A DNA stretch of 64,000 nucleotides from Candidatus Velesiimonas alkalicola. GTDB taxonomy: Bacteria; Omnitrophota; Gorgyraeia; Velesiimonadales; Velesiimonadaceae. The number at the start of each line of letters is the position of its first letter. The first letter of the stretch is position 1. Of this stretch, positions 4,926-61,578 are shown piece by piece. The translations under genes and the position numbers were made by a program. The notes below the pieces were generated by a model. The model did no database searches. It saw nothing but the letters and a program-made list of their open reading frames with translations, and was not told where the DNA came from. The DNA is taken from assembly GCA_013626165.1 (NCBI GenBank), contig NDHX01000006.1, positions 2,060-66,059 on the forward strand, in the 5' to 3' direction.

Positions 4926-4960
4926 TATATGGAGCGGGTGATGGGAAATTGAACCATCGC
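4926..4960 (-). repeat. Degenerate copy of the tRNA-Gly 3' end (acceptor/T-arm fragment)
   Basis: tatatggagcgggtgatggga matches the 3' end of the intact tRNA-Gly at 5077-5152, and the following 14 nt are similar. It has the same orientation and lies ~115 bp distal. Confidence 0.6.
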
Positions 4961-5076
4961 TTATGCTCTTTAAGGGAAAACCAATGTTTTTCCCTTAATG
5001 TTCTCTTTCCTTTTAAAACACAGGGGAAAACTAACCTTTTCCCCTGAGACCCCTTTGGTGGTTCAAATCCCTTATA

Positions 5077-5152
5077 TGGAGCGGGTGATGGGATTTGAAC
5101 CCACGACTTCCACCTTGGCAAGGTGGCGCTCTACCGGCTAAGCTACACCCGC
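5077..5152 (-). tRNA. tRNA-Gly (anticodon GCC), CCA encoded
   Basis: The reverse complement GCGGGTGTAGCTTAGCCGGTAGAGCGCCACCTTGCCAAGGTGGAAGTCGTGGGTTCAAATCCCATCACCCGCTCCA folds as a cloverleaf. Confidence 0.9.
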
Positions 5153-5177
5153 AGAAAAGTACAGAAACTACCCCAAG

Positions 5178-5260
5178 TGCGAGGGGCGGGAGTTGAACCC
5201 GCAATCGCAAAGCGAACTAGCTCCTAGGGCTAGCGCGTATGCCAGTTCCGCCACCCTCGC
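5178..5260 (-). tRNA. tRNA-Leu (anticodon TAG), long variable arm
   Basis: The reverse complement GCGAGGGTGGCGGAACTGGCATACGCGCTAGCCCTAGGAGCTAG... has a type II tRNA-Leu architecture with a T-arm GCGGGTTCAACTCCCGC. Confidence 0.85.
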
Positions 5261-5288
5261 TCAAAGCGGAATTTTGGCTCACACATAA

Positions 5289-5364
5289 TGGTACGCCCTG
5301 ATGGAATTGAACCATCAACCAACGGATTAAGAGTCCGCTGCTCTACCGATTGAGCTAAGGGCGC
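5289..5364 (-). tRNA. tRNA-Lys (anticodon CTT), CCA encoded
   Basis: The reverse complement GCGCCCTTAGCTCAATCGGTAGAGCAGCGGACTCTTAATCCGTTGGTTGATGGTTCAATTCCATCAGGGCGTACCA folds as a cloverleaf. Confidence 0.85.
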
Positions 5365-5446
5365 TAAAAAAACAGGACCTCCCTCGGATCTTTAATAATT
5401 TGGGAGCGTTTGTTTTTTCCCCTCTATAATGGTAGCATTGTCGGCA

Positions 5447-5746
5447 TTATCTGGGCAGGACAGGACCCGGTGGAACCCCCACATTAAGAGAGTCGCATTC
5501 TGGACACTTCTGTATCATAAGGCCTGGTCCTATCTCCATCGCCACAGGGTCATCAATGGGTTTAATTGCATAAATATAATCGCAATCAAAACACTTCATT
5601 GCTCTGTTAACTGTCATTTTCCTACAGACAGAGCATCTCATGGGGAATTCTTGCGCACCAGAAATTTTCTTAACTGACAAACTTGCTGGTCCACAAGGCT
5701 CACACACAAGGTTAGCCTCGTAATAATACTTTTTAGGAATAACCAT
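5447..5746 (-). CDS. Small cysteine-rich zinc-ribbon protein (four CxxC pairs)
   Basis: 99 aa with CEPC, CSVC, CFDC and CPEC motifs. It has no recognisable enzymatic domain. Confidence 0.5.
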   Translation of the reverse strand: MVIPKKYYYEANLVCEPCGPASLSVKKISGAQEFPMRCSVCRKMTVNRAMKCFDCDYIYAIKPIDDPVAMEIGPGLMIQKCPECDSLNVGVPPGPVLPR

Positions 5747-6189
5747 ACTAATGATTATCCACAGGCAGATAATGATAACTTCTACCTATTGGAAGAGTGC
5801 ATTTCACAATCTACCAAACATAAACACATGTGATAATACTTTTCAGGAAAAAATCTTACTGATGATTATCACCAGGCAGATAATGATAATACCTACCAAT
5901 ACTGCTGCTACCAGTTTATTTTTTTTCCACTCTGCTGCCATATACCCTCCTTGTTTTTTCCTCTTTTACCCACTTAGAAGCGAATATTTTATAGTTTACC
6001 AAACATAAACATAAAAGTCAATATTTTTGGATTTGCGAGGGCTCAGGCCTGAAGTAATCCTGTCGTTGCGAGGGCTCAAGCCCGAAGCAGTCTCATCTTT
6101 ACTGTGATTGCCACGTTCTTTTCAGTTGCTCGCAATGACTAACAAAAAAACGTGCCTGACTTTAATAATAAGCCAAGACAGGGCTCTGT

Positions 6190-9100: not shown

Positions 9101-9768
9101 CTCTGTATAGAATTTAACTGCCTGTTTACTTCTGTAATTATATCATTTATACGAAGTATGTTATCTTCTGTTTCTATGAGTTTTCTTTCTGCCTCACTTC
9201 TTTTTGTCTCATACATTGTAATTCCTGCTGCTTCTTCAAACACAACTCTCCTGGATTCCGGTTTTGATTCAATAATCTGTGCCATCCTTCCCTGATCCAT
9301 AAATGAATAAGCAGATGCTCCTATACCTGTGCCTGCCAAAAGTTGTTCAATATCTCTTAGCCGCACAACAGTGCCATTTAACCAGTATTCACTTTCGCCC
9401 GCCCTGAACAGTTTTCTTGTAATTGTAACCTCATCATAGTCAATGGGAAGAATTTTTGAAAAGTTGGAAAAAACTACGCTTAATTCCGAAAGGTTCATAG
9501 GGGGGACCGTCTTGGTTCCGTTGAATATAAGGTCTTCCATTTTTGAAGCCCTTAAAAGGCGAGGATTTTGCTCGCCGAGGACCCATCTTAAACCATCGGA
9601 TATGTTTGATTTACCACAGCCATTCGGACCAACGATTGAGGTAATACCGGGTTCAAATACCAGTTCTGTTTTGTCTACAAAGGATTTAAAACCCAATAGT
9701 GTAATACGCTTTAAAAAATGCTTATCTTCCAATGCATCTCCTGTTTTAAGAGCCTGTGAGCACAACAT
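6190..9768 (-). CDS. smc: Chromosome segregation protein SMC
   Basis: ~1190 aa with an N-terminal Walker A (GPNGCGKSN), long coiled coils, a hinge, and C-terminal ABC signature/Walker B (LSGGEK, ILDEIDAPLD). The true start is probably slightly internal, near FLKRITLLGFKSF. Confidence 0.95.
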   Translation of the reverse strand: MLCSQALKTGDALEDKHFLKRITLLGFKSFVDKTELVFEPGITSIVGPNGCGKSNISDGLRWVLGEQNPRLLRASKMEDLIFNGTKTVPPMNLSELSVVFSNFSKILPIDYDEVTITRKLFRAGESEYWLNGTVVRLRDIEQLLAGTGIGASAYSFMDQGRMAQIIESKPESRRVVFEEAAGITMYETKRSEAERKLIETEDNILRINDIITEVNRQLNSIQRQVVKAQRYKEEFETLRSMEVKLATHKGLLLMAQRACVKDKAEQILAQIKAKSDELKKSQEDEEKLKNEFFQLEQKLANTKAEQIALQGSILSAQEKINTNKEWSDKLNSSNLKILSDIESLGVRKDALESQISEIIKKKEQTKLDIANIETEISSVADKEKTIIDQFEAKQSVLKQLKEKIFELQTKRANLRNEYLNINAKLNELGIRLQRYRADTEQIQKQKDTVLQNIDTLGADIEKINIKIQKAQVGRDGILSQIQIISTEKKNKAEKLLEYEKRHSASISKTEMLKTLEKDHQGYKSGVKAVLDEVDAGRLSNIKGTLAQYMQAREGFEKAVESQLEEIAKFLICKDIDTALIAAQILKQKDLGKATFILSDSIDPSLINDNMQIQGACRFTSCIQVPEEMEKMFKEILKDVWCVKNIEEAKNILKDCPDMIKLVTLDGDIITRYTITTGSLNISDISVIGRQARLSQAEKETSQIEHSISEMKSQIFFLTDKENSLNKEISGFTEMIRQKSERLAHLLTVLNIAKQNMEKITQEQKIIETDIVQTQEEAEQIKTKNNILNSDISKIESELKTAENQLLDAEKSIQQINLSKQEIAIHKTKIEGHLANLKNQEKHFFETVHVLQKSLETENHSLQDKTAEIEQNKTRIEDIRNNNFQLEQELWIFRQKENDFLKILSEKEDSKNKAGQSFEENSNMLQNIRNLIEDLKNQERDVEIEIIQIDKNIETIKMHIEGAYHIEIDLTGRDTLEHWDQIATQIGQSKERIAQMGQVHMGAIEENRELKERFDFLTQQHDDLVQSKDSLLKTIEKIDKTAKEMFTQTFEKVREHFKTYFGQLFGGGEADIFLLDPANSLISGIEIVARPPGKKLQSIALLSGGEKALTAVSLLFAIFKVKPSPFCILDEIDAPLDESNIGRFIKLLKDFVRDSQFLIITHNKKTIEIADVIYGVTMAEHGISKVVSVKFKK

Positions 9769-9804
9769 TCCTGTTTTTGTAAGAATAGGAATGAAAACTT
9801 AAAA

Positions 9805-11043
9805 TTAGTTAAACGGCGTCATTGTAAGAATTTTTTTAGCAATATCGGGATATTTTGCAATAAACCAGAGTTCTTCTTCCACAAGCGGTTTCTGATTGTG
9901 CACATTAGCGTATCTTGCAAGTTCAAGAATATTTGTGGCTTCCTGTTCATCTTTAAACTCTACTTCCATTTTATCGTATACATTTCTGAACCCTTTTATA
10001 CCAGAATATTCTCCAATAGTAATCTGCCTTCCGGTTTCAATAATTTCAGGCTCACCTCTTCCCAATTCCTCAAAATCATATAGTTCATAGTTTCGTCTAT
10101 TTTTAAGAGCACCATCAGCATGTATACCTGACTCATGAGCAAAAGCATTTGCACCAACGCCCGGCTGATTAATAGGAATGGGTATCCCAAATGCATATGA
10201 TGCATATTTACACAACTTCCATGCCATCTTTAGGTTAATTCTTTCATCTAAAATATACCTATCCTTATAACCGCTCCCGTGTTTTAATGCAAGAACAACT
10301 GCCACAAGGTCGGCATTGCCTGCTCTTTCACCCATACCATTGATACAGGTATTGATATAGGCATCTACTCCAGAGTCAACAGCCGCCATAGCGCCTACAA
10401 CGGAGTTCGCAACCACCATCCCAAGGTCATTATGACAATGCAGTTCAATTGGAATTTTGACCTGTCTTAAAATTTTTTTAATATTTTTGTATATTGTAAA
10501 CGGAGTATCATATCCTAATGTATCGCAATACCTGAATCTGTCTGCCCCTGATTTTTTTGCTGCTTGAACAAACTCAATCAAATATTCTATCTGTGTTCTA
10601 GATGCATCTTCAGCATTTACTCCTAAGATTTTTATGCCCATCTTTTTTGCCAGTTGGACAGCACTGCTCATTTCTTTTATTACAGCCACATAGTCCATCT
10701 TATCCTTGAATTTATGTGTAATCATCTGGTCAGATGTTGAAATTGAAAGATTCAAGTATTTTATATCAGGACATCTTTGCACCGCAGTTTGAACATCTTT
10801 TTCAATTGCTCTTATCCACCCGCTCAGTCTGATGGGAGACAGCACACCTCTTTTTGCTAATTCAAGATTAGCATTAAGATAATTTGTCTCATGAGATGTA
10901 ACGGGAAAACCAAATTCGCTTTGAAGCACGCCAAATTTATTCAAGTGTATATTAAGAAGTGTCTTCTGAAGTTTTGAAAGACAAATCCTTGATGTTTGCA
11001 CTCCATCTCTGTTTGTTACATCAATAATATAAATCTTCGGCAT
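9805..11043 (-). CDS. HMGL-like 2-oxoacid C-acetyltransferase (homocitrate/2-isopropylmalate/citramalate synthase family)
   Basis: 412 aa with an N-terminal DVTNRDGVQ motif (DxTxRDGxQ), an HxH metal site (LHCHNDLGM) and a TIM-barrel aldolase-like pattern. Confidence 0.7.
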   Translation of the reverse strand: MPKIYIIDVTNRDGVQTSRICLSKLQKTLLNIHLNKFGVLQSEFGFPVTSHETNYLNANLELAKRGVLSPIRLSGWIRAIEKDVQTAVQRCPDIKYLNLSISTSDQMITHKFKDKMDYVAVIKEMSSAVQLAKKMGIKILGVNAEDASRTQIEYLIEFVQAAKKSGADRFRYCDTLGYDTPFTIYKNIKKILRQVKIPIELHCHNDLGMVVANSVVGAMAAVDSGVDAYINTCINGMGERAGNADLVAVVLALKHGSGYKDRYILDERINLKMAWKLCKYASYAFGIPIPINQPGVGANAFAHESGIHADGALKNRRNYELYDFEELGRGEPEIIETGRQITIGEYSGIKGFRNVYDKMEVEFKDEQEATNILELARYANVHNQKPLVEEELWFIAKYPDIAKKILTMTPFN

Positions 11044-48794: not shown

Positions 48795-49695
48795 GGAAAT
48801 CTTTTAAATACCTCCCCCCATCGGAAACTTTTCCTGTTAAATCAAAAGTTCGTTTTACCCAAATTTCATCTAAAAACTCACCATTTATGTACGCAGACGT
48901 CATCTCTTCTTTTGGTTTCTTGAAAACATTCTTCGCCAAATCATTTTCAATCAACTGGCCTAAATAAAGAAAAATTACGTAGTCTGCAAGCCGCATTGCT
49001 TGTTGAATGTTATGAGTAACTATTATTACAGTATAGTCTTTCTTTAATTCCAACAATTTCTTTTCTATACGTTCCGATGAAACGGGATCTAATGATGAAG
49101 TGGGTTCATCGGCAAGAATTGCTTCCGGTTCAACGGCAAGTCCTCTTGCAAGGCATAATCTTTGCTGTTGCCCTAACGATAATTTTGCCGCAGATGTCCT
49201 TAATCTATCTTTTACTTCATTCCATAGACCTGCTTCTTTCAGATAATGCCGGACTTTTTCATCCAGAAATTTTTTTCCTGTGCGACCGTGAATCCTCAAA
49301 CCATATGCAACATTGTCATATATTGACATCGGCAGTGGATACGGTTTCTGGGGAAGCAATCCTATCTTTTTTCTGAGATAAATTACATCGGTTCTATTAC
49401 CGTAAATATTTTCACCGTTAAATAAAATCTCCCCTGATATTTTAACACTGTTTTGCAACTCCAAGAGTCTGTTAAATGACTTCAATAAAGTTGTTTTGCC
49501 GCAACCGGACGGTCCGATTATAGCAGTTATATTTTTCTCCGGAATATCGACAGTTATATCCTTTAATGCGTGATGATCGTCATAAAATACATTAAGATTT
49601 TTTATGTTTATATGCGTTTTCGCAGATTCCATCCCATTTTCCTCTCTATCTAATAATATGTTTACTAAATTTTTTTGACAATAACCTGGAAACAA
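48775..49695 (-). CDS. pstB: Phosphate ABC transporter ATP-binding protein
   Basis: 306 aa with Walker A GPSGCGKTT, an ABC signature and PstB-like spacing. It overlaps pstA. Confidence 0.8.
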   Translation of the reverse strand: MFPGYCQKNLVNILLDREENGMESAKTHINIKNLNVFYDDHHALKDITVDIPEKNITAIIGPSGCGKTTLLKSFNRLLELQNSVKISGEILFNGENIYGNRTDVIYLRKKIGLLPQKPYPLPMSIYDNVAYGLRIHGRTGKKFLDEKVRHYLKEAGLWNEVKDRLRTSAAKLSLGQQQRLCLARGLAVEPEAILADEPTSSLDPVSSERIEKKLLELKKDYTVIIVTHNIQQAMRLADYVIFLYLGQLIENDLAKNVFKKPKEEMTSAYINGEFLDEIWVKRTFDLTGKVSDGGRYLKDFHDYKKK

Positions 49696-50518
49696 TACTG
49701 ATAGTTAAAAGCAGGACCGTCAACACTATAGCCGAGGCATATCCGCGCTGCTGCACTTCCGGAAAAGGAGTTCCCAACTGGAAAAATATCGCCAGAGGTA
49801 AAGTCGCAACCGGCCTAAACAACGAATAAGGCAGGAAATCGGTAAAACCTGCTGTGAATAATACCGAGGCAGCGTCACCGATACCGCGTCCGAAAGCAAT
49901 AAGGACTGCCGTTAATATCCCGGGCATCGCCTGCTTAAAAATAATTTTTGTTGCGGTCTCTAATCTGGTTGCCCCCAAACTAAAAGATGCCTCTTTCAAT
50001 TCCAGCGGTATCATTTTTAAGATCTCATCCATACTTCTTGCCATTATCGGAATTATCAATAAAGCAACGGTAATCATACCTGCTAATAGCGAAGCGCGAA
50101 GTCCAAAAAATACCATTAAAGTAAAGCCGAATGCTCCGTAGACGATTGATGGAATGCCCCACAAAATATCAAGGAAAAGCCGCACAACCAAAGCAAGTTT
50201 TGAATTTTTTTTCAAATACAAATTTAAGTAAAAAACCATCGGCATACTGACTAAAAAAGCCAAAAATGTTGCTCCAAATCCCAAAACAATTGAACCTAAA
50301 ATAGCATTGAGTATACCGCCTTCTTTACCTATATAATATCCGCCTTCTGGTGTCTTAATAAGCATATCCAGATTCAGCGCCGGCAACCCTTTCAAAAAGA
50401 TTACCGCAAGAATCAGAACTAAACTTCCAACAACTATAAATGTAGAAAAGAGCATAAGAAACTTAAAAAAAATTTCTTCAATTCTCTTGCCGTGCATATC
50501 AGGATTCTCCTCTTTCAA
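49646..50518 (-). CDS. pstA: Phosphate ABC transporter permease
   Basis: 290-aa polytopic permease with an EAA-like loop, in pstCAB order. Confidence 0.75.
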   Translation of the reverse strand: MKEENPDMHGKRIEEIFFKFLMLFSTFIVVGSLVLILAVIFLKGLPALNLDMLIKTPEGGYYIGKEGGILNAILGSIVLGFGATFLAFLVSMPMVFYLNLYLKKNSKLALVVRLFLDILWGIPSIVYGAFGFTLMVFFGLRASLLAGMITVALLIIPIMARSMDEILKMIPLELKEASFSLGATRLETATKIIFKQAMPGILTAVLIAFGRGIGDAASVLFTAGFTDFLPYSLFRPVATLPLAIFFQLGTPFPEVQQRGYASAIVLTVLLLTISIVSRLLSKKFSKHIIR

Positions 50519-51422
50519 TGTGAAATAAAATTACCCGACCAAGTATATTGAATAAAATTGTCACTATCAGAAGGATAAATGCTACCAGAAGCAGCGCCGA
50601 ATCGTATAAAGGTATAGACATCATCTCGCCGTAAGTATTTGCAATAAGTGCAGGTAAAGGATAGACAGGATCAAAAATTGATTTAGGAAATATGTGCATA
50701 GCACATCCGGCGACCATCAAGACAGCCATTGTTTCGCCAAAAGCCCTGGATAACCCTAAAATTACTGCTGCAATAATGCCTGAACGCACTTTTCTTAAGA
50801 CGACAAACCTTGTTGTCTGCCACTGTGTGGCACCTAAAGACAATGATGCCTCTCTCATCTCAACAGGAACTGCTCCGATTACTTCTTCAACAACGGAAAT
50901 AATTAAGGGGAAAACCATCACTGCCAAAACGATACCGGCGGTTAAAGCGGTAAAACCGGTATAATTATTGGAGCGAAACGGAAAAAACGGCAATCCCTCG
51001 CTGAAAAAAGGCATAAGATAGTCCCGCACCAACGGCACGATGGCAATCATCCCCCAAACGCCGTAGACAACCGGCGAAATTCCTGCTAATAAATCAATTA
51101 TCGGTTTAATAACTTCACGAATCTTTTTCGGCGCATATTCAGAAAGAAAAATTGCTGTCAAAACACTTAAAGGCACCGCAATAACCATTGCAATTACGGT
51201 CACCCAAAAAGTTCCAACAATAAAACTTGCCAGACCGAATTGCCCGGAAGTAGGAGACCATGTTACTGAAAAAAGTATCTCTTTTAAGTTATTTACCGCC
51301 AATACCGGTTTTGACCTCCAATATAAACCAAATACCATCAGAAAAGTAATACTCAAAACAAATAAACAGAATAAAAACATTACTCTCTGCGCAACAATAT
51401 CTTTGAATTTTCTGGCATTCAT
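50499..51422 (-). CDS. pstC: Phosphate ABC transporter permease
   Basis: 307-aa polytopic permease, first gene of the pstCAB block. Confidence 0.75.
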   Translation of the reverse strand: MNARKFKDIVAQRVMFLFCLFVLSITFLMVFGLYWRSKPVLAVNNLKEILFSVTWSPTSGQFGLASFIVGTFWVTVIAMVIAVPLSVLTAIFLSEYAPKKIREVIKPIIDLLAGISPVVYGVWGMIAIVPLVRDYLMPFFSEGLPFFPFRSNNYTGFTALTAGIVLAVMVFPLIISVVEEVIGAVPVEMREASLSLGATQWQTTRFVVLRKVRSGIIAAVILGLSRAFGETMAVLMVAGCAMHIFPKSIFDPVYPLPALIANTYGEMMSIPLYDSALLLVAFILLIVTILFNILGRVILFHIERGES

Positions 51423-51463: not shown

Positions 51464-51503
51464 CCACAGAGAACACAGAGAATTAACTCTGTGCCCTCTG
51501 TGG
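51464..51503. terminator. Hairpin ccacagag-aacacagag-aattaa-ctctgtgcc-ctctgtgg between the efflux pump gene and pstC
   Basis: An 8-bp perfect outer stem plus an inner stem, flanked by T-rich tracts. It is a plausible intrinsic terminator for the RND operon. Confidence 0.4.
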
Positions 51504-51562: not shown

Positions 51563-54500
51563 TCAGTAAGCTCCATTTACTATCTTTTTTCTTGAAGACA
51601 TCCAGCTATAAATCACGGGTAAAACAATCAGGGTTAGTAAAGTAGAGGAAACAAGTCCGCCTACTACTACAATGGCTAAGGGTCTCTGTATTTCCGAGCC
51701 CACTCCGGTAGTTATAATTAAGGGGAGTAATCCCAGTACAGTGGTTATCGTAGCCATTAAAACCGCCCTTAATCTTGACAGAGAACCCTCAATTATTACT
51801 TCTTTCAAAACAAGACCTTCTTTTTTTAGATATTCAAAACTCGTTATTAGTACCAAACCGTTTGTCATGGTAATTCCAAAAAGCGCGATAAATCCAATAG
51901 AAGAGGGGATACTCAAATTCTCCCCAAACATAGCAAGGGCAAATATCCCGCCTACCAATGCCAACGGTATGTTCAGTATAATTAAAAGAACATTCTTAAA
52001 TGAATTAAATAAAATGTAAAGGAGCACGAGAATCAGAAACAGGGTAATCGGAACGACAACCGATAATCTCCGGTTTGCTGCCTGATGCAATTCAAATTGT
52101 CCACCCCAGGAAATCCTGTACCCCGAAGGAATGCTTACCGCCTCTGCTATTCTTTTCTGCGCTTCCTCTACAAAACCACCGGCATCCCGTCCTCTGACAT
52201 TACACTGAATGGAGATAAACCGGCGGGCATCTTCACGGGTTACCTGTCTAATGCCGGTAACCGTGCCGATGTCCGCCAGTTGTTCAAGCGGCACATTATA
52301 CCCGGCAGGAGTGCGAACAAGTAGGTTTCTTATTGACTTAATGTCTTTGCGGTAGGGCTCGGCAAATCTAACCGTGATGCCGAATATTTTCTCTTCTTCA
52401 AAAACCTTGCCGACCTCCTCTCCCCCTATGGCGTCGTGGATTGCATGCTGTATCTCGTAAATATTCAGTCCATGACGTGCTACTTCATCACGGTTTATAT
52501 CTATCTGGACCTGGGTTTGGCCAACTACCTGCTCGGTCCTTAAATCAGCCACTCCCTTTATTGTGGAAAGGACTCCTTCTATTTCCGCTGCTTTTTGACG
52601 GAGAATATCAAAATCCAGTCCAAATAGTTTCACTACCACCTGGGTCCCGGCACCGGCTATCAAATCATCAATCTCGTGCTGGATTGGCTGGGAAAAACTG
52701 ATTGAAGCGCCTGGAAAATCAGCAATACGGCGGTCAATTTTGGAAACAAGTTCTTCCTGGGTTTTAACCGTTTTCCACTTATCCCTGGGATATAGGTCAA
52801 CGGTTATACAGGCAAAATTGGTGTGATGTATATGAGGACCAACCTCCCCGTAACCAATGTCGGAAACAACCCGTTTAACCTCTGGAATAGTCAAGATCTC
52901 TTTTTCTAATTTTGTTGCAATACTACTGATTTCTTTCAAGGATATGTTGGGGTCCATATATACTAAGACCTGAATTGTCCCTTCCTGAAGGGTAGGGATG
53001 AACTCTTTGCCAAGCCGGGTAAAAACCAGCCCGCCCAAGACAAGTAGAATAACCATTGTAGAAACAACCAACAAGCGGCGGGGGAGAAAAAACATCAACA
53101 CTGCCCTGTAAAATTTAAGGGCTATGGAAAAAATGGGTTTCTTTTTCTTCTCTTCACTCTTCCTTTTGTGGAGTAAACTGCAAAATGCGGGAGCGACAAT
53201 CAGAGAATAGAGCAAAGAACCGAGCATAGTCATAGTCACCGCAAAAGCCAGCGGTCTAAACATTTTTCCTTCCACACCCCCAAGAGTAAAGATGGGTATA
53301 AAGACAGCAATGATAATAAAAACGGCAAAAAGTATGGGAGGTCCAACTTCTTTACCAGCAGATAAAATCACTCCTGTGACTGAACCGGTATCAGAATTCT
53401 CCTGCAGGGATGATTGGATCTTTTCTACCATTATAATAGTGGCATCAACTATCATACCCAGAGCAATCGCTACTCCCCCAAAAGATATCAGGTCGCCGGG
53501 TATTCCATAGCGGTGCATCAAAATAAATGCCAATAACATTGAAAAAGGCAGTGAAAAGACCACTATTAAGGTATTGCGGAATTTACCCAAAAAAACAAAT
53601 ACAACAAGAGAAACCAAAATAAACCCTAAAGTAAGTGCTTCTCTGACGGTGTGTATACTGCTTTTAACCAGAGAGGACTGGTCGTAGAAAGTAATTATTC
53701 GGACACCGGGAGGTAAGATTTCATTGATCTCTTTTATTCGTTCTTTCAGACGGCCAATCACCTCAAAGGAATTTGCTCCATGAAGTTTATAGACGCTTCC
53801 GGTCACAATCTCCTTTTGACCATCCATAGAGGCAATGCCGCGCCTAAAAGCGGCTCCAAATTCCACCCTTGCCACATCCCTTACATAAACAGGAACTCCA
53901 TCTTCAATACCGATAACAATATTCTCAATATCACTAACGGTTTCAATCAACCCCAAACTTCGGATAATCCATTCTTCACTTCCTTTTTTCATAATACCAG
54001 CGCCTACATTCAGGTTATTTTGCTGAACCGCCTCAATTATATCCTCCATTGTTAAATCGTATTTCAAAAGTTGAGCGGGATATATCTTTATCTGATACTG
54101 TCTAACATTGCCTCCCTGAGTGATAACCTCGGCAACACCGGGCACAGTTTGAATGTCGGGTTTAATAATCCAGTCCTGAAATGTGCGCAAATCAACATTG
54201 CTATATTCGTCCCCTTCAACATAGTAGGAAAGGATTTTCCCCATTCCGCTGGCGATTGGTCCCATTTCCAGACCATGATGTATCTTTAATCCGTCCGGAA
54301 TAGCTTCTTCGGCTACTTTAAGTCTCTCGGAAACAAGTTGCCGGGCAAAGTATATGTCCACATCATCCTCAAAATAGACCTTTACCGTGGAGAGTCCAAA
54401 TGACGAGAGTGAACGGAGCCGTTGGACACCGGGCAGCCCTAACATCGCAACCTCAATTGGTCGGGTAACTAACGCTTCAATCTCTTCGGGAGCTGTTCCT

Positions 54501-54679
54501 TCAACCTCAGCAAATACCTGCACCAGGTTGGGACTGACATCGGGAAAGGCGTCAATAGGCAGCCGGGTAAGGGAGATAAATCCGGCAATACAAATCCCCA
54601 CAAACCCCAGCACTACTAAGAATTTGTGTCTTAATGAAAACTGAATAATTTTCTCAATCATATTCTCTCCTTCAGACAA
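51563..54679 (-). CDS. Heavy-metal efflux RND transporter (CzcA/CusA family)
   Basis: 1038 aa with 12 TM helices and two large periplasmic loops, showing HME-RND family conservation. Confidence 0.9.
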   Translation of the reverse strand: MSEGENMIEKIIQFSLRHKFLVVLGFVGICIAGFISLTRLPIDAFPDVSPNLVQVFAEVEGTAPEEIEALVTRPIEVAMLGLPGVQRLRSLSSFGLSTVKVYFEDDVDIYFARQLVSERLKVAEEAIPDGLKIHHGLEMGPIASGMGKILSYYVEGDEYSNVDLRTFQDWIIKPDIQTVPGVAEVITQGGNVRQYQIKIYPAQLLKYDLTMEDIIEAVQQNNLNVGAGIMKKGSEEWIIRSLGLIETVSDIENIVIGIEDGVPVYVRDVARVEFGAAFRRGIASMDGQKEIVTGSVYKLHGANSFEVIGRLKERIKEINEILPPGVRIITFYDQSSLVKSSIHTVREALTLGFILVSLVVFVFLGKFRNTLIVVFSLPFSMLLAFILMHRYGIPGDLISFGGVAIALGMIVDATIIMVEKIQSSLQENSDTGSVTGVILSAGKEVGPPILFAVFIIIAVFIPIFTLGGVEGKMFRPLAFAVTMTMLGSLLYSLIVAPAFCSLLHKRKSEEKKKKPIFSIALKFYRAVLMFFLPRRLLVVSTMVILLVLGGLVFTRLGKEFIPTLQEGTIQVLVYMDPNISLKEISSIATKLEKEILTIPEVKRVVSDIGYGEVGPHIHHTNFACITVDLYPRDKWKTVKTQEELVSKIDRRIADFPGASISFSQPIQHEIDDLIAGAGTQVVVKLFGLDFDILRQKAAEIEGVLSTIKGVADLRTEQVVGQTQVQIDINRDEVARHGLNIYEIQHAIHDAIGGEEVGKVFEEEKIFGITVRFAEPYRKDIKSIRNLLVRTPAGYNVPLEQLADIGTVTGIRQVTREDARRFISIQCNVRGRDAGGFVEEAQKRIAEAVSIPSGYRISWGGQFELHQAANRRLSVVVPITLFLILVLLYILFNSFKNVLLIILNIPLALVGGIFALAMFGENLSIPSSIGFIALFGITMTNGLVLITSFEYLKKEGLVLKEVIIEGSLSRLRAVLMATITTVLGLLPLIITTGVGSEIQRPLAIVVVGGLVSSTLLTLIVLPVIYSWMSSRKKIVNGAY

Positions 54680-54681
54680 TT

Positions 54682-55710
54682 TTAATGCGGATGGCCGTGG
54701 GCACCGAAGTCAATAGCCGCTTTCTGGAGTTCAGCTTTCAGGTGAAAACCACCTTTGGTCACTACCTGTTCACCAAGTTTAAGCCCGGCAATCACTTCTG
54801 AAAACTCCTCCCCTGTCGTTCCTAATTTGATTTCCCTCAGTTTGTATCTGTTGTCCCCTATTGGTATGAAAACAATTTCTTTGTTTTCCCATCTTTGTAT
54901 TGCTGAATTGGCAATAGATACCATTTTGTGAGGAGCCGTGTAAATTATATCTCCTGTAACAAACTTACCGAGTTTCAGCGTGTGGTCATAGTTATCAATA
55001 TCTACCCTTATTTTTATAGTTCTTGTTCTCCTGTCAACCCGTGGAGAGATGAATGTTATTTCACCGGGGTAAATCTTGCCGGGATATGCACGGGTTTTCA
55101 CTTTGACTTTTTGTCCCAATTTTACAATGGCTATATCTTTTTCATAGACATCAAAACTTGCTTTCATCGTAGATATATCGGCTATTGTGAAAAGAGAAGT
55201 AAGCATGTCCACTTCTTCTCCCTCAGAAATACGTTGTCCTATAATTAGTGTCCCACTGGGAGATTTTATCTCTTCAATTTTCCCGTCTTTACTGCCTTTG
55301 ACAAGTGCCAGTAAAGTTCCTTTTTCCACATTATCCCCCAAACCAACTTTAACTTCAACTATCTCACCCGGAATATTGGAAGTGACATGGAATAATTTCT
55401 CGCTATCCTGGGCTATCTCTCCGGTAATTCGTAGACTTTTCTTTATATGCCGCATAGCAACCTTATCTGTTTTTAATCCTATCATCTTCTTGCCCCGAGT
55501 AGATATTTGGACAACACCTTCCTCCTCGTGCTCGTGATGAACTCCTTCATCGTGCCTGTGTGGATGTCCCTCTTCAAAACACCAGCAATGGCAGCCCTCT
55601 CCATGTTTATGCGGATGCTCCTCTTCCCTGAATCCTCTCCACACTAATATTCCCACAATTAAACAAACTATACCTACAATTAACAGCCACGGCCAATAAG
55701 ACCTTTTCAT
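54682..55710 (-). CDS. Periplasmic adaptor (membrane fusion protein, CzcB/CusB-like) with a His/Cys-rich N-terminal metal-binding segment
   Basis: 342 aa with a TM anchor, then HPHKHGEGCHCWCFEEGHPHRHDEGVHHEHEEEG, then lipoyl/beta-barrel MFP domains. Confidence 0.85.
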   Translation of the reverse strand: MKRSYWPWLLIVGIVCLIVGILVWRGFREEEHPHKHGEGCHCWCFEEGHPHRHDEGVHHEHEEEGVVQISTRGKKMIGLKTDKVAMRHIKKSLRITGEIAQDSEKLFHVTSNIPGEIVEVKVGLGDNVEKGTLLALVKGSKDGKIEEIKSPSGTLIIGQRISEGEEVDMLTSLFTIADISTMKASFDVYEKDIAIVKLGQKVKVKTRAYPGKIYPGEITFISPRVDRRTRTIKIRVDIDNYDHTLKLGKFVTGDIIYTAPHKMVSIANSAIQRWENKEIVFIPIGDNRYKLREIKLGTTGEEFSEVIAGLKLGEQVVTKGGFHLKAELQKAAIDFGAHGHPH

Positions 55711-55766
55711 AGTTCACCTCCTGTTGTTTTTTCTAAAATCGCCAACTTTGTTTGATGGTCAAGTAT
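55604..55766. repeat. 163-bp direct repeat (adaptor-gene 5' end + upstream region); second copy at 56777-56939
   Basis: Near-identical copies. A third partial copy at 55921-56017 lies inside the coding region of the 321-aa paralogue. Confidence 0.9.
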
Positions 55767-55917
55767 AGACATAGTGTACCGTCCCATAAGTCCCTTTACA
55801 TTTGTCATTGCGAACAAAGTGAAGCAATCTTGTTTTCTGAACCAAAAAGTGAGATTGCTTCGTTGCATCGCCCCTCGCAATGACAGCCAAATGTCAAGAA
55901 ACGTTAGGGACACTACA

Positions 55918-56883
55918 CTAGTGCTCGTGATGAACTCCTTCATCGTGCCTGTGTGGATGTCCCTCTTCAAAACACCAGCAATGGCAGCCCTCTCCATGTC
56001 TATGCGGATGTTCCTTTTTTCTTTCAGCTTCAGCAATGGCATAGGCGCCTTTGGTCACAACGCGCTCACCATCGGATAGACCAGACAAAACCTCTACAAA
56101 GTCATTATCTCTGTTGCCCAGTTCCAGATAACGTTTCTCAAAGGTTTCGCCGGCTACCTGGACGAAAGCTACTGGCTTGCCGTTTTCATCAATCAGAGCC
56201 GACTCTGGTACAACCAAGGTCTCCTGTCCTATCGCTTTTCGTCGTCCCACAGGTTCGGCCCTGGTTAGCATTTTCCATTGCTGTTCCTTGAGAAAACTTA
56301 TGCCAGCGATCTCTTTAGGAAATGGAGCACGGTCAACTTCTTCATGGGAACCATATACCTCAAAAGGCGGCAGTTCGACGAGATGATCTTTGCCTTCAAG
56401 GGGGATAACCAGCGACAGACTCCACTCACCAGGTAGTGGAAAAGTTAGTTCTGGAATGTAAATACCGTCTCTAACCGGAGCCCGTGCGATATGCTTGTCC
56501 GGTGTCTCGGAGCCGCGACGCAAAATGAAAGTAACGGGTCCTTTTCCCCGAGGCTTAAGTGTTTGCAGGTCGGAGACATGGGTGATAAATTTGGTTGGTG
56601 TATTTGCCACGATAAATGCATGCTCAAGGAAAATTTCGAATCGCTCGGTCCAAACCGTGACCTGGGACGATTTTTCTGCGCCATGACCAATATGGACAGG
56701 ATGCTCTGCGTCATGTTTGTGTGCATCTTCCTCCTTCCCTTGTTGTTCGAAACAATAGCAATGGCATACCTCTCCGTGTTTATGCGGATGCTCCTCTTCC
56801 CTGAATCCTCTCCACACTAATATTCCCACAATTAAACAAACTATACCTACAATTAACAGCCACGGCCAATAAGACCTTTTCAT
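55918..56883 (-). CDS. Chimeric, shortened periplasmic adaptor paralogue with His/Cys-rich segments at both termini
   Basis: The N-terminal 38 aa and the C-terminal HPHRHGEGCHCWCFEEGHPHRHDEGVHHEH are identical to the neighbouring adaptor. The middle has a unique domain plus an MFP C-terminal beta-barrel-like segment (ETLVVPESALIDENGKPVAFVQV...GERVVTKG). Confidence 0.6.
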   Translation of the reverse strand: MKRSYWPWLLIVGIVCLIVGILVWRGFREEEHPHKHGEVCHCYCFEQQGKEEDAHKHDAEHPVHIGHGAEKSSQVTVWTERFEIFLEHAFIVANTPTKFITHVSDLQTLKPRGKGPVTFILRRGSETPDKHIARAPVRDGIYIPELTFPLPGEWSLSLVIPLEGKDHLVELPPFEVYGSHEEVDRAPFPKEIAGISFLKEQQWKMLTRAEPVGRRKAIGQETLVVPESALIDENGKPVAFVQVAGETFEKRYLELGNRDNDFVEVLSGLSDGERVVTKGAYAIAEAERKKEHPHRHGEGCHCWCFEEGHPHRHDEGVHHEH

Positions 56884-58115
56884 AGTTCACCTCCTGTTGT
56901 TTTTTCTAAAATCGCTAACTTTATTTGATGGTCAAGTATGGACCTAAAATAACTCAATCGAGTCCCTTTGAATGTTGTTAGAACTTCAAGATAGGTTAAA
57001 AAATCGGTTTTTCCTTCCGCATATTGCATCTCAATCAGCCTGATTAATTCGCTTCCTTTCTTTACAGATTTTTCCATCAGTGCCACTTGCCTATCAGATA
57101 AAACAACCTCCCCAAAGGCATTGTTAACTTCTAATTCTATCTGCCTTTTGAGGAAATTTATTTGATATTCTATCTTTTGTGACTCATTTCTTGCCTCTGC
57201 AATCTCACCTTGTTTTCTATACCAGAAAGGTAAAGGTATTCCCAGGGTGACTCCCAATCTCTGTTCTCTGTCTTCCCGTTCTGCCCAAAAACCGACGGAG
57301 GGGTTAGCAAACCTCTCTTTTCTCATCAATTTTACCTCCATATTTTTTGAATCAAGCATCAGTTTTTTAGCCTTAAGGTCTGGCCTGTTTATCAAAGCAT
57401 TTTTTATAAGCGTGTCTAAATCAAACCGCCTCTCTTTATAAACAAATTCATCGGTGCAAACGAATTTATGAGAGACCGATCTCCCGAGTAAAATATTTAA
57501 TTTTGCCTTATTAAGAGAGAGATCTTTTTCGGCTACTAATAACTCATTTTGAGCGTAAAACATCTCAATCTCCGCCCTGAGTAATTCACTCCTTAAAACT
57601 TCTCCAAGATTAAATTTCTCCCGGACTTTATCCAAAAATTTCCTGGTTAGATTTAAAGACTCCTCAGCAAGTTCCTCTATTTTTCTTGCCAACAATATCT
57701 GAGCATATGATTCCTTAACCTTAAAAGAGACCCCCAAGTGGATTAACTCCAACTCACTTTCGTAGATTTTAATCTCATTTCTTGCCATATTTCCCCGGAG
57801 TGTTCTTTTCCCAAAGAGTTCCAATTCTTGACTGACTTCAACTTCTACACCTCCGGAAGGATTTTTCATTACCGTCTCAAGTTCAGGATTAGGATAAGCC
57901 AAAGCCTGAACAACTCTTGCCCTTGCTGATTCAATATTTTTTTCTGCTGTCACTATTTCAGGATTATTTATAAAAGCGATTTTCAATGCCTCTTCCAAAG
58001 AAAGTTTTTCCAACTCTTCCCCTCCGGCTATCTTAATATGGAAGGACATCAATGTTAACACGATAAGAACGACCTTCATCACAACCTCCTCTGGTATAAT
58101 CTTCACCCTAGACAT
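56880..58115 (-). CDS. Outer-membrane efflux protein (TolC/CzcC/CusC family)
   Basis: 411 aa with a signal peptide and two OEP repeats. It is translationally coupled to the downstream adaptor gene. Confidence 0.8.
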   Translation of the reverse strand: MSRVKIIPEEVVMKVVLIVLTLMSFHIKIAGGEELEKLSLEEALKIAFINNPEIVTAEKNIESARARVVQALAYPNPELETVMKNPSGGVEVEVSQELELFGKRTLRGNMARNEIKIYESELELIHLGVSFKVKESYAQILLARKIEELAEESLNLTRKFLDKVREKFNLGEVLRSELLRAEIEMFYAQNELLVAEKDLSLNKAKLNILLGRSVSHKFVCTDEFVYKERRFDLDTLIKNALINRPDLKAKKLMLDSKNMEVKLMRKERFANPSVGFWAEREDREQRLGVTLGIPLPFWYRKQGEIAEARNESQKIEYQINFLKRQIELEVNNAFGEVVLSDRQVALMEKSVKKGSELIRLIEMQYAEGKTDFLTYLEVLTTFKGTRLSYFRSILDHQIKLAILEKTTGGEL

Positions 58116-58140
58116 CCTAGAGCGAATTGGTTAGTAAATT

Positions 58141-58191
58141 GTTAGATAACGATACATTAAGTATACAACTTAATGTATCGTTAGTCAACAC
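58141..58191. repeat. Second copy of the 53-bp palindrome (left arm slightly degenerate)
   Basis: ...aacgatacattaagtatacaacttaatgtatcgttagtcaacac, with a ~46-nt identity to 40146-40191. It lies between the OMP gene start and pstS. Confidence 0.9.
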
Positions 58192-58258: not shown

Positions 58259-59194
58259 TTATTCCATTGCGTTCAAAACTTCTTCTCTTTCCGTCTTTGA
58301 CAGCGACAAACTTGTTTGTATTTCGTCAACAATTTTTGTGCCTTCATCAGAAAGAGCAAACTTAATGAACTCTTTTACTAATCCTTTTGGTTTACCTTTG
58401 ACAAAGAAATAATTTTTTCTTGTCACCGGGTATCTACCTGCACGGATTGCTTTGATTGCGGTTTCACGGTCGTTGTAAATTTCATCCGGGTCAGCGAGAC
58501 CATTTTCATTGGAATCAATTGGAACTAACTTCACACCTTTTACTACTGTCCCTTCCCTTGTAAAGACAAAACTAAAGTTAGAATATCCAATCCCAATTGG
58601 GTCTCTTCTAGATGCTTCAAGTAATCCTGGGTCACCAAATATACCCACACCACGCAAATCTTCTTGCTTCTTACCTAAGTATGCTGCCCAAGTTGCTGCC
58701 GCACCGCAAGAATCAGAGCGGGTATAGACATGGATTGGTCTACCTACCTTCCGTCCAACTACTTCATCCCAAGTAGTAATTATGCCGCTGATATAAATGT
58801 CAATCCAGGTCTGTCTCTTTACACCTTTTTTTAGAAGGTCTTGCAGTACTGGATTTTTATCACTTATCGTTGGATATACTGCATCATGCAAAATGTAAAT
58901 TGGCACTATCCCTTTCTTAATCTCTGCCGGGTCAGGGTCACGAGAGACCATTCCGATATCAACTAATCCGGCAATCGCATCTGCCGCGCCTTTTCCGGCG
59001 CCGCCGGCAGAGACATCAATTCTCACACCGGGGTGTTTTTTCCGGAATGCTTCCGCCCAAGCAACCGCAGTCGGATAAATTGCCCAGGCTCCCGATAACG
59101 TTACCGTTCCTTTGAGTTCTTTTTCCTGACTAAACCCAATTTTTCCGCTTAACAACAAAACAACTATTAATAAAATATTTATCATTTTAGTCAT
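58259..59194 (-). CDS. pstS: Periplasmic phosphate-binding protein (PBP-fold)
   Basis: 311 aa with a signal peptide and a type-2 PBP pattern of the PstS family (SGAWAIYP...SAGGAGKG). Confidence 0.6.
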   Translation of the reverse strand: MTKMINILLIVVLLLSGKIGFSQEKELKGTVTLSGAWAIYPTAVAWAEAFRKKHPGVRIDVSAGGAGKGAADAIAGLVDIGMVSRDPDPAEIKKGIVPIYILHDAVYPTISDKNPVLQDLLKKGVKRQTWIDIYISGIITTWDEVVGRKVGRPIHVYTRSDSCGAAATWAAYLGKKQEDLRGVGIFGDPGLLEASRRDPIGIGYSNFSFVFTREGTVVKGVKLVPIDSNENGLADPDEIYNDRETAIKAIRAGRYPVTRKNYFFVKGKPKGLVKEFIKFALSDEGTKIVDEIQTSLSLSKTEREEVLNAME

Positions 59195-60099: not shown

Positions 60100-60408
60100 T
60101 TACGACAGCGCCTTTGCCAAATCATCTTTTAAGTCAATTTTATTTTCAATGCCGACGGATAGACGGATAAGATTTTCTTTTATCCCCCGTTTTGACCTCT
60201 CTTCTGCAGATAGAGAACTGTGAGTCATTTTTGTAGGATAACAGGCGAGCGATTCAACCCCGCCCAGCGACTCCGCCAGCAGGAACAATTTTAATTTTGA
60301 TACGAATTTTTCAACGGCGGGAAAGCCGCCTTTTATCTCAAAACTTATCATCCCTCCGAAACCGCTCATCTGTTTTTTTGCAAGATTATATTGTTTACTA
60401 CCCGGCAA
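60100..60408 (-). pseudogene. C-terminal ~100-aa remnant of a Cys/Met-metabolism PLP enzyme (cystathionine gamma-synthase/lyase family)
   Basis: 102 aa matching only the C-terminal domain (GFGGMISFEIKGG...LAESLGGVESL...HPATM-like). Its AT-rich codon usage is like the host. It lies 30 bp downstream of a complete GC-rich homologue. Confidence 0.7.
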
Positions 60409-60438: not shown

Positions 60439-61578
60439 CTAACCTTCAGTTTTTGCCAGCGCCTGCTCCAAATCCTCGATTATATCCTCGATATTCTCCA
60501 ATCCCACGGAGAGTCTCACCAGGTTATCGAAGATACCCACCTTCTCCCGGAACTCCTTCGGCATCGAGGCATGGCTCATGGTAGCCGGGTGCTCTACGAG
60601 GGAATTAGCGCCGCCAAGGGACTCCGCTAGAATGAATAGCTCGACACCTCTCAAGAACGAGTTAACCTCGCCATTTATCTCGAAGGACACCATCCCGCCG
60701 AAACCGTCCATCTGCCGGGCGGCGATCTCATGACCCGGATGAGACTTCAGTCCGGGATAGAATACCCTGCTTACCCGGGGGTGTTTCTCCAGAAATGAGG
60801 CGACCGCGGCAGCAGACATCGCATGCTGCTTAACCCTCAAAGGCAGGGTCTTGATCCCGCGAAGCACCAGCCAGCAGTCAAAGGGTGAGGCACAGGTGCC
60901 CAGAGCATTCAAGAGAAATTGCACCTTTTGGGTTAGATCATCGGTAGCGGTCACTATCGCCCCACCGACAACATCGCAGTGGCCGTTGAGATACTTGGTA
61001 GTAGAATGCACCACCAAATCAACGCCATACTCAATTGGCCGCAGGAAACAGGGCGTGGGAAAGGTATTATCCGCCATGGTCAACAGATTATGCTTTCGGG
61101 CAATATCTACCACCATCTCTACATCCGTGATATTTAGCAGCGGATTGGAGGGGGTCTCGATCCATATCATCCTGGTATTGGGCCTTATGGCATCCTCGAT
61201 CTCCCGTCTGTTATTCAGACGTAGGAAGGTAAACTCCAATCCGAAGTTGGTCATCACATCTTGAAACAGACGGTAGGTTCCGCCGTAGATGTCATCTCCG
61301 GAGATCACATGGTCTCCGGCCTTCAGCAAATATATTGCGGTGGCTTCGGCAGCCATGCCGGTGGCAAAGGCAAATCCCGCCTTTCCGCCCTCGAGCCTGG
61401 CGATGGTCTCCTCCAACACCTTCCTGGTGGGGTTGGAGGTGCGAGAATAGTCGTAGCCCCTGGTCTTGCCCACATCCTCAAAGGCAAAGGTGGAGGTCTG
61501 ATAGATCGGTGTGATTAATGCGCCGGTGGTGGGATCGGGCTTTTCGCTGCCATGAATCGCTAATGTTTCGAATCTCAT
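60439..61578 (-). CDS. Cystathionine gamma-lyase/gamma-synthase / O-acetylhomoserine sulfhydrylase family PLP enzyme
   Basis: 379 aa, full-length Cys_Met_Meta_PP pattern, ~55% GC. Confidence 0.85.
   Translation of the reverse strand: MRFETLAIHGSEKPDPTTGALITPIYQTSTFAFEDVGKTRGYDYSRTSNPTRKVLEETIARLEGGKAGFAFATGMAAEATAIYLLKAGDHVISGDDIYGGTYRLFQDVMTNFGLEFTFLRLNNRREIEDAIRPNTRMIWIETPSNPLLNITDVEMVVDIARKHNLLTMADNTFPTPCFLRPIEYGVDLVVHSTTKYLNGHCDVVGGAIVTATDDLTQKVQFLLNALGTCASPFDCWLVLRGIKTLPLRVKQHAMSAAAVASFLEKHPRVSRVFYPGLKSHPGHEIAARQMDGFGGMVSFEINGEVNSFLRGVELFILAESLGGANSLVEHPATMSHASMPKEFREKVGIFDNLVRLSVGLENIEDIIEDLEQALAKTEG

Follow-up and report, generated by a model that had tools for sequence, protein, structure and literature searches.

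The window that we analysed, a stretch of 64,000 nucleotides from Candidatus Velesiimonas alkalicola (contig NDHX01000006.1), carries on its minus strand a four-gene heavy-metal resistance-nodulation-division (RND) efflux operon whose open reading frames (ORFs) follow each other in the order outer-membrane factor (OMF), a 321-aa protein, a 342-aa periplasmic adaptor and the RND pump. With moderate confidence, we consider the 321-aa protein to be a detached module, made up of a β-sandwich and the membrane-proximal (MP) domain of an adaptor, that arose as a separate membrane-tethered protein through duplication and recombination and that would capture metal and hand it over to the pump in trans. 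The genes of the operon are located as follows.

56880-58115, minus strand: OMF gene, TolC/OEP family, 411 aa (Pfam OEP, E 6e-43)
55918-56883, minus strand: ORF of the 321-aa protein, with its TAG stop codon at 55918-55920
54682-55710, minus strand: gene of the CzcB-type periplasmic adaptor, 342 aa, without an α-hairpin (Pfam HlyD_D23, E 4e-34; TIGR01730 above its cut-off)
51563-54679, minus strand: gene of the heavy-metal RND pump, CusA/CzcA family, 1038 aa (TIGR00914, 1021 bits; ZneA, E 3e-199; CusA, E 2e-189)

The OMF stop codon overlaps the ATG of the 321-aa gene (ATGA), and the true start of the RND gene is probably the ATG at 54661. Only two folded domains are present in the AlphaFold2 (AF2) model of the 321-aa protein, a β-sandwich (residues 72-177) and a β-domain (residues 196-291), after which a disordered tail follows. 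This model was built on a 78-sequence alignment and has a mean predicted local distance difference test score (pLDDT) of 83.5, with values above 90 over residues 70-290; the sandwich modelled alone reaches a pLDDT of 91. The parts of the protein map onto the DNA in the following way.

56806-56868, minus strand: transmembrane (TM) anchor, residues 6-26, a TM helix in the AF2 model
56683-56796, minus strand: His/Cys segment, residues 30-67, disordered in the AF2 model
56299-56682, minus strand: N-domain, residues 68-195, a CopC/CrdA-type β-sandwich
56011-56298, minus strand: stand-alone MP (CzcB_C-type) adaptor domain, residues 196-291

The sandwich retains all of the residues that are invariant in its family (E83, F85, E87, H102, R112, R138, G140, I141, Y142, G152 and W154), and its H88 and D105 are nearly invariant there; it contains neither Met nor Cys. 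CrdA is the nearest solved structure in a fold search, at an identity of 12-13%. Pfam searches with the 321-aa protein and with the sandwich alone returned no family even at E<=10, a sub-threshold YtkA match in two relatives being the sole trace. The 321-aa protein is thus not a CopC/CrdA member by sequence or by ligands, although a cupredoxin-like β-sandwich fold is present. Its second domain is matched by the NCBIfam model for CzcB/NccB (TIGR00999; partial match over residues 217-282, E 2e-13, 49.9 bits against a cut-off of 319.3) and by TIGR01730 (RND_mfp; E 1e-9, 37.9 bits against a cut-off of 94.9), both matches covering just the last ~65 model positions, and Foldseek paired it with the N-terminal plus MP construct of SilB (5a4g), CusB and ZneB. 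A preliminary description of this locus, made from the DNA letters and their translations, had held the middle domain of the 321-aa protein to be unrelated to the adaptor; this view has to be given up, since residues 196-291 constitute an adaptor MP (CzcB_C) domain. Residues 60-290, for which a CusF-like fold or an adaptor β-barrel had been envisaged, turned out to be neither in structure prediction and fold search. We likewise rejected an assignment to the CusF-type metallochaperones, as the small OB-fold barrel and the Met/His/Trp Cu(I) site that define them are not found in the 321-aa protein. The lipoyl (barrel-sandwich hybrid), α-hairpin and β-barrel domains are absent as well, with no match to Pfam HlyD_D23, HlyD_3 or Biotin_lipoyl. 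With three of the four domains missing and scores below the cut-offs, the 321-aa protein lies outside the RND periplasmic adaptor family in the strict sense.

A protein search yielded 456 homologues of the 321-aa protein, and the sandwich alone matches 390 cluster representatives, almost all of them adaptors of 500-790 aa that have it at their N-terminus. These relatives comprise two classes. In class II, mostly from Verrucomicrobiota and ~520-580 aa long, a normal adaptor comes after the sandwich. Both ends of these proteins can be aligned with the 321-aa protein, which is collinear with both flanks of the ~550-aa adaptors and skips ~290 residues in between; the module therefore resembles such an adaptor minus its lipoyl, hairpin and barrel domains. 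In class I, mostly from Planctomycetota with further members in Thermodesulfobacteriota and in Victivallales metagenome-assembled genomes (MAGs), one ORF encodes the sandwich, the MP domain and a complete hairpin adaptor. Among the 27 class I loci that we examined, 22 of them with complete genes, the fusion is universal (27/27), either as an ORF of 610-920 aa or as one frameshifted or contig-truncated ORF. Their gene order is OMF-fusion-RND, and their RND pumps are 58-74% identical to that of the window, the exception being L019 at 45%. Fused adaptors of Planctomycetota and other phyla have an N-terminal module with which the sandwich and MP core of the 321-aa protein shares 50-86% identity; between the core and the 342-aa adaptor next door, identity is 32%, over the ~78 residues of the MP domains only. 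The core thus looks like an old conserved module that resembles a sandwich-bearing adaptor from which the lipoyl, hairpin and barrel domains were lost.

The locus in the window shares with class I the sandwich and MP domain with their invariant residues, the OMF-x-RND order, and the HxHH and DAT-VE[KR] motifs of the RND pump, and it departs from class I in the lack of a covalent fusion: module and adaptor are set apart by a stop codon, a spacer of 144 nt and a new start codon. His-rich, Cys-free segments precede the sandwich in class I, and the possession of flexible metal-binding arms around the module is hence a trait of the family. The CxCxC box sets apart the window lineage and L005, the closest operon. 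An identical copy of the 321-aa protein is found in the NCBI MAG GCA_018725345.1. Several short homologues that could have passed for stand-alone forms were discarded, because they are contig-end or frameshifted pieces of fused genes (P0003/L003, P0004/L002, P0013/L004) or because their alignment continues into adaptor N-terminal sequence (P0002, P0007 and others). No further genuinely split form came to light among the relatives examined, and the split is found in one lineage only. GC and GC3 (GC at third codon positions) were set aside as a sign of a foreign core, the gap being small (GC3 0.43 versus 0.36) in a heterogeneous window (0.25-0.65) and lending weak support only. In Pfam, Rfam, NCBIfam and the literature searched, we came across no account of adaptors that carry the sandwich, of MP domains in tandem or of a split module; nothing relevant emerged either when the literature was searched for gene fissions of a comparable kind and for adaptors with a CopC/YtkA-like domain.

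How the module came to be detached can be read from two direct repeats, a long and a short one, in the genes of the 321-aa protein and of the adaptor.

56746-56946, minus strand: upstream copy of the long repeat, with the final 21 OMF codons, a GGAGG ribosome-binding site (RBS), the ATG, the membrane anchor and the His/Cys segment start of the 321-aa gene
55525-55773, minus strand: 5' region of the 342-aa gene, in which a copy of the long repeat (55573-55773) overlaps a copy of the short repeat (55525-55625), according to a DNA alignment and mismatch table
55918-56018, minus strand: tail copy of the short repeat, encoding the C-terminal EHPHRHGEGCHCWCFEEGHPHRHDEGVHHEH of the 321-aa protein
55711-55773, minus strand: OMF 3'-end remnant of 21 codons without a start, preceding the 342-aa gene and aligned to the true OMF 3' end (translations SILDHQTKLAILEKTTGGEL vs SILDHQIKLAILEKTTGGEL)

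The copies of the long repeat, spaced 1173 bp apart, are identical at 191 of 201 nt and include a perfect run of 139 nt (55604-55742); those of the short repeat agree at 97 of 101 nt. Outside each repeat, identity is at background level within 20 nt, and the repeats are consequently sharply bounded and not chance matches. The preliminary description had recognized the better part of them, namely a 163-bp repeat at 55604-55766 and 56777-56939 (161 of 163 nt identical), which extends to the 201 nt given above, and a third partial copy at 55921-56017 (94 of 97 nt), which extends to 55918-56018 as the counterpart of 55525-55625. It had also let the long repeat cover the promoter and the first 38 codons. 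The 38 codons, and more, are indeed included, with the membrane anchor MKRSYWPWLLIVGIVCLIVGILVWRGF and then the start of the His/Cys segment. The promoter is not: in its stead the repeat spans the last 21 OMF codons, the GGAGG RBS and the ATGA stop/start overlap, and the promoter scan gave within the repeat only sigma-70-like matches of 9/12, all inside the coding region. Promoter-like matches in the region number 11 versus 7.2 +/- 3.2 in shuffled sequence, which is near expectation.

The product of the short repeat, EHPH[KR]HGEGCHCWCFEEGHPHRHDEGVHHEH, stands directly after the anchor in the 342-aa protein and forms the C-terminal tail of the 321-aa protein. His/Cys segments are hence present at both ends of the latter, just as had been noticed at the outset. 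The accompanying statement that both of its ends are identical to the adaptor applies to the N-terminus; the C-terminal tail copies instead the N-terminal His/Cys segment of the adaptor (residues ~28-64). The notion of a chimeric protein is well founded, as its ends are recent copies (95-97%) of the adaptor 5' region around a core with a different history. The duplicated DNA amounts to 201 + 101 nt only and represents the 5' region of the adaptor gene, not the whole gene. The 5' end of the 342-aa gene is, in turn, an exact joint of both repeats that flank the core of the 321-aa gene: it matches the 5' copy of the 321-aa gene up to 55604 and the tail copy from 55606 on, so that the switch, which lies between 55607 and 55603, occurs within a 3-nt interval, inside the shared box GA(G/A)CATCCGCATA(A/G)ACA(C/T)GGAGAGG.

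This layout is not an assembly product. The copies of the long and the short repeat differ at 10 and 4 positions, respectively, and are therefore physically separate copies rather than one copy that was traversed twice by the assembler. The same gene order and repeats are present in L001, an NCBI MAG contig that is 99.3% identical and gap-free, and in L006 and L007, in which N-runs fall exactly at the repeats; four assemblies thus agree on the arrangement. Moreover, unique sequence (the spacer and the OMF remnant) connects the tail of the 321-aa gene to the second copy of the long repeat. Both copies, for which the preliminary description had sought confirmation, are consequently real. Between the window and L001 there are 45 differences, 40 of which reside in the RND gene at 53386-54092 and none in the OMF gene. 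Four of the five differences outside the RND gene fall where the copies of the long repeat differ from each other, and L001 has there the base of the other copy, a pattern by which the copies appear to be still exchanging sequence through gene conversion. The 321-aa protein of L001 has a single substitution, located inside the repeat copy, versus the 40 differing sites in the adjacent RND gene.

Two side observations concern these assemblies. L007 (positions 940-1090) is without 56 nt of the spacer and OMF remnant (window 55743-55798), which L001 and L006 have just like the window; either the population truly varies at the junction, or the assembler took a shortcut. At least 19 of the 40 RND differences, together with a small indel, are clustered in one patch at 53386-53657 (RND residues ~343-455, TM4 and the next loop), which suggests that this tract was acquired by recombination with a third allele.

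Duplication and recombination within the box that codes for the His/Cys segment appear to have given rise to the repeats, and we favour a route of duplication followed by deletion. The lineage would at first have possessed a fused gene consisting of anchor, His/Cys box, sandwich, MP domain, a second His/Cys box and a hairpin-less adaptor. The stretch that begins with the OMF 3' end and runs to the second box would then have been duplicated in tandem, and the sandwich-MP part of the downstream copy would finally have been lost by recombination between its two boxes. All junctions are reproduced by this route, including the hybrid 5' end of the 342-aa gene, and so is, weakly because it concerns a single site, the CAC of L005, which is like the 5' copy of the 321-aa gene where the 342-aa gene has a CAT like the tail. 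Alternatively, the 5' end of the adaptor gene may have undergone a small duplication, after which a foreign module was inserted into the first copy. The 201-nt and 101-nt repeats around the module supply it with the RBS, start codon, anchor and His/Cys ends of a separate gene.

The remainder of the operon bears on the origin of the module. The 342-aa adaptor has the same TM anchor as the 321-aa protein, a His/Cys segment (residues ~28-64) and a C-terminal GAHGHPH; it passes the TIGR01730 cut-off (128.4 vs 94.9 bits) and possesses lipoyl, β-barrel and MP domains. Its α-hairpin is missing: residues 91-167 of ZneB are without a counterpart, and BesA aligns contiguously. Its relatives are adaptors of 300-345 aa from Omnitrophota and Elusimicrobiota. 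The RND pump scores above the TIGR00914 cut-off (1021 vs 701 bits). In the alignment it has L, F and D at the positions of the CusA Met triad, H and D at the ZneA site positions along with an HxHH loop, and a CusA-like TM4 spacing; judged by these residues and by the His, Asp and Glu at the ZneA and CusA metal-site positions inspected, divalent ions would be more likely substrates than Cu(I)/Ag(I). Its motifs GEVGPHIHHTN, QPIQHEIDD and GMIVDATIIMVEK are variants of GEVGPH[IV]HHTN, QPIxHE[IV]D and GMIVDATIIMVE[KR], which are common to the window, L005 and class I and absent from H-type RND pumps. The identities to the window are the following.

H-type operons (L088, L090, L092): OMF 33-48%, adaptor 41-50%, RND 42-48%
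Class I operons: OMF 21-27%, adaptor 28-36%, RND 58-74%
L005: OMF 66%, adaptor 65%, RND 78-87%

The OMF of the window is accordingly 33-66% identical to those of operons with a hairpin-less adaptor versus 21-27% for class I. Together with the RND motifs, these values indicate one ancestry for pump and module and another for the OMF and the hairpin-less adaptor; on such sequence comparisons, the operon is a mosaic. In the closest operon, on the metagenome contig L005 (JGI 3300045950, Ga0484001_0011233, 4820-10093), the order is OMF-adaptor-RND, and the adaptor has the same His/Cys box. Its pump genes are broken, with the RND gene in five frames, the adaptor signal peptide frameshifted and the OMF truncated at its N-terminus, so that this operon is possibly decaying; six genes upstream on the same contig look intact. 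Because of its several frameshifts, we rejected L005 as a clean model of the ancestor. Its gene order may predate an insertion, or it may stem from a deletion via the 201-nt repeats that was followed by decay.

As to function, the 321-aa protein would be anchored in the inner membrane, and with its MP domain it would dock on the periplasmic portion of the RND pump. Its sandwich and His/Cys arms would take up periplasmic metal ions, probably divalent ones, which would be handed to the pump or to the 342-aa adaptor, making the protein a tethered metallochaperone that acts in trans. We infer its metal binding and pump docking by analogy. MP domains are the part of adaptors that contacts the RND porter domain; heavy-metal efflux adaptors carry extra N- and C-terminal domains, SilB having a CusF-like one, and the CusB N-terminus, CusF, the SilB C-terminal domain and ZneB bind and present metal (PMC4446572). 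The copper chaperone CrdA, a periplasmic protein of the CopC family, is encoded together with CrdB-CzcB-CzcA (PMC9182242). By this analogy, periplasmic metal handling beside the pump, as the preliminary description had proposed, is the most reasonable function, with the nearest solved structure, CrdA, itself stemming from an RND operon. In all 27 related loci examined, the sandwich and MP module lies beside one and the same RND subtype.

A number of points speak against this interpretation. Ig-like sandwiches are widespread, and many are solely structural. The fold likeness to CrdA occurs at a mere 12-13% identity, a profile comparison with CrdA is not significant (E 0.037), and the sandwich, which has no Met or Cys, does not retain the metal ligands of CrdA/CopC (Met-rich loop, His pair). 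The closest operon, L005, has no 321-like gene, and the gene may thus be dispensable, although several frameshifts disrupt the L005 pump genes. With respect to the origin, the order of events fits a fused intermediate that was later split as well as a foreign module inserted into a duplicated 5' end, the GC3 differences (0.43 vs 0.36) are small, and the apparent gene conversion may reflect the mixing of reads from near-identical repeats by the assembler.

A bolder version of our proposal, which we put forward tentatively and with clear reservations, is that the module constitutes a third, hitherto undescribed periplasmic component of a subclass of heavy-metal RND systems, namely an MP-only mini-adaptor with a docking site on the pump apart from those of the canonical adaptors and with a CrdA-like domain for metal delivery.

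It is rather unlikely that the 321-aa ORF is a non-functional leftover, that is, debris from recombination between two efflux operons that is open by chance and heading for loss via the 201-nt repeats. The mosaic operon, the OMF 3' remnant and palindromic element at the junction, the lack of the gene in L005 and the confinement of the split form to one lineage would all fit such a fate. However, the 321 codons are intact and equipped with a strong RBS and a coupled start, all invariant residues are kept, both domains are predicted to fold with high confidence, and the protein is nearly identical in L001 despite the divergence of the adjacent RND gene. In addition, the repeats supply a membrane anchor that debris would not need.

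We attach a similarly low probability to a regulatory or assembly subunit, in which the MP domain would serve as a decoy or gate at the adaptor site, or would help a class I pump to pair stably with a foreign hairpin-less adaptor, the sandwich being a sensor or spacer. The role of MP domains as the pump-contacting part of adaptors (PMC4446572), the common ancestry of pump and module next to a foreign adaptor, and the absence of the known CrdA/CopC ligands from the sandwich, as read from its sequence, are in line with this idea. Yet the module of class I resides on the same chain as a full adaptor and can therefore not simply block the adaptor site, and the His-rich arms and invariant Glu, His and Asp residues suggest a bound metal.

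Two further explanations carry very little weight. The preliminary description had taken the 321-aa gene as the outcome of a tandem duplication of the resident adaptor gene, with one copy remodelled into a short paralogue with a new middle; direct repeats 1173 bp apart, 38 identical N-terminal residues and an MP-type domain at the end of both proteins invite this idea, but it is very improbable, since just 201 + 101 nt are in common, lipoyl or barrel remnants are not seen, the MP domains are far less alike (32%) than the core is to modules of other phyla (50-86%), the domain loss is old and common to 27/27 related loci examined and hence no local remodelling, and the 342-aa adaptor belongs to a different, hairpin-less family. 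Hardly credible, too, is a wrong path of the assembler through the repeats that would have created the A-B-A layout from two loci or from a collapsed or expanded repeat: the perfect repeat of 139 nt is longer than common k-mers, L006 and L007 have N-runs at the repeats, L007 is 56 nt short and L001 ends at the operon borders, but the copies differ at 10 and 4 sites, unique sequence links the 321 tail to the second copy, the reading frames are open across all junctions, and two gap-free assemblies that differ at 45 sites follow the same path.

A 207-nt non-coding stretch separates the 321-aa gene from the 342-aa gene and contains, upstream of the OMF remnant, an element of its own.

55774-55917, minus strand: unique 144-nt spacer with a long imperfect palindrome, present in a single copy in the window (RNA fold -70.5 kcal/mol, z -5.5)

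The palindrome is built on the core GTCATTGCGAG-N12-GAAGCAATCTC ... AGATTGCTTC ... TCGCAATGAC at 55800-55885 and reaches beyond 55917, taking in the TAG stop codon of the 321-aa gene (55918-55920). It has no U-tract, and a minus-strand terminator scan gave no call. A pattern scan found the core, with the consensus GTCATTGCGAGGAGCGnAGCGACGAAGCAATCTC, a variable loop of ~22 nt and GAGATTGCTTCGCTTCGCTCGCAATGAC, in at least 120 metagenome contigs from very diverse environments; copies are also located at L037:6100-6129 and in L094-L173. The flanks are not conserved among the copies. Among the matches listed, about one fifth of the copies have mutually inverted flanks (score >=15/25; none in the control), which places the core at the apex of a larger hairpin, as in the window. 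An Rfam search with the spacer and with canonical core copies identified no family, an exact-match scan of metagenomes for the core of the window itself gave 0 hits, and a literature search on the core returned unrelated primer matches only. The core may be a mobile or structured element.

Two sites flank the operon.

58140-58190, minus strand: promoter-like TTGACT-17-TATACT (58160-58188; 10/12 match in the promoter scan) overlapped by a palindrome that was detected as an inverted repeat and confirmed by reading the sequence
51464-51503, minus strand: terminator-like hairpin followed by TTAGATTTT, 3' of the RND gene and before pstC, found by direct sequence reading beyond the range of the terminator scan

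The palindrome upstream of the OMF gene has 23-nt arms that are 87% complementary (TGTTAGATAACGATACATTAAGT / ACTTAATGTATCGTTAGTCAACA), and it is the sole place where a promoter-like site is combined with an operator-like palindrome. We regard 58140-58190 as a candidate for the promoter and operator that serve the entire efflux operon, and its palindrome as a putative operator for a metal-responsive repressor. Together with these two sites of its own, the efflux operon sits between pstS (58259-59194) and pstC/pstA (50499-51422 and 49646-50518) and interrupts the normally contiguous pst operon for a phosphate ABC transporter. On the side of the RND gene, the order with pstC, pstA and the ABC ATPase gene is identical in L006 and L007; the L001 contig stops at both operon borders. 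Further along the window, a 102-aa ORF of low GC (60100-60408) corresponds to the C-terminal part of a pyridoxal phosphate (PLP) enzyme of Cys/Met metabolism and lies directly downstream of a complete 379-aa paralogue (60439-61578; GC 0.54, GC3 0.66 versus a window median GC3 of 0.34), with which it has a 46-nt repeat in common (78%). Here, a native gene looks to have been displaced in situ by a foreign copy, with its 3' remnant left behind, a scar of the same kind as the OMF remnant at 55711-55773.

By analogy, we infer that the 321-aa protein acts in the manner of CrdA and of the chaperone domains that are attached to adaptors in SilB and CusB/CusF. SilB of Cupriavidus metallidurans CH34, with its C-terminal CusF-like domain, and CusF and the CusB N-terminus of the Escherichia coli CusCFBA system have, like the 321-aa protein, a periplasmic metal-binding element at the adaptor that is thought to feed the pump (PMC4446572), and the MP domain of the 321-aa protein matches the N-terminal plus MP construct of SilB (5a4g). 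In contrast to their OB-fold domains, that of SilB being C-terminal, the putative metal domain of the 321-aa protein is an N-terminal Ig/cupredoxin-like sandwich without Met ligands; furthermore, it belongs to a separate membrane-anchored protein with an extra MP domain of its own. With CrdA (HP1326) of the Helicobacter pylori crdAB-czcBA operon, the 321-aa protein shares the β-sandwich fold, without the CrdA Met-rich motif, whereas CrdA is soluble and lacks an MP domain and His/Cys arms. The fused class I adaptors possess the same module (50-86%), operon order, RND subtype and His-rich segment before the sandwich; in the window, however, the module has a gene to itself, along with a borrowed anchor and a CxCxC/His tail, and the hairpin-less adaptor and the OMF are of another lineage. 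Two adaptor-related genes are also adjacent in the RND operon for TriABC-OpmH of Pseudomonas aeruginosa (PMC8277102), but TriA and TriB are both complete adaptors, and the 321-aa protein retains the MP domain only. BesA of Borrelia burgdorferi is hairpin-less like the 342-aa adaptor and has an OMF gene with it; it is part of a multidrug system, while the 342-aa adaptor is of the CzcB type and has metal-binding tails (His/Cys and His).

The locus points to a different solution, namely an N-terminal CrdA/CopC-like sandwich on the adaptor, which is common in Planctomycetota and Verrucomicrobiota and to which one subclass adds an extra MP domain before the real adaptor. The natural split of the module from the adaptor offers the easiest form for testing the module alone. 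If the module is a third component of these pumps, then the window would represent a natural experiment in which it works in trans and stays with its pump after exchange of the adaptor and the OMF. At the same time, the locus is a clear small-scale case of gene splitting, in which a ~200-nt copy with RBS, start codon and anchor before the downstream half keeps both halves translatable and exported, and the direct repeats that result from it stay substrates for gene conversion and deletion.

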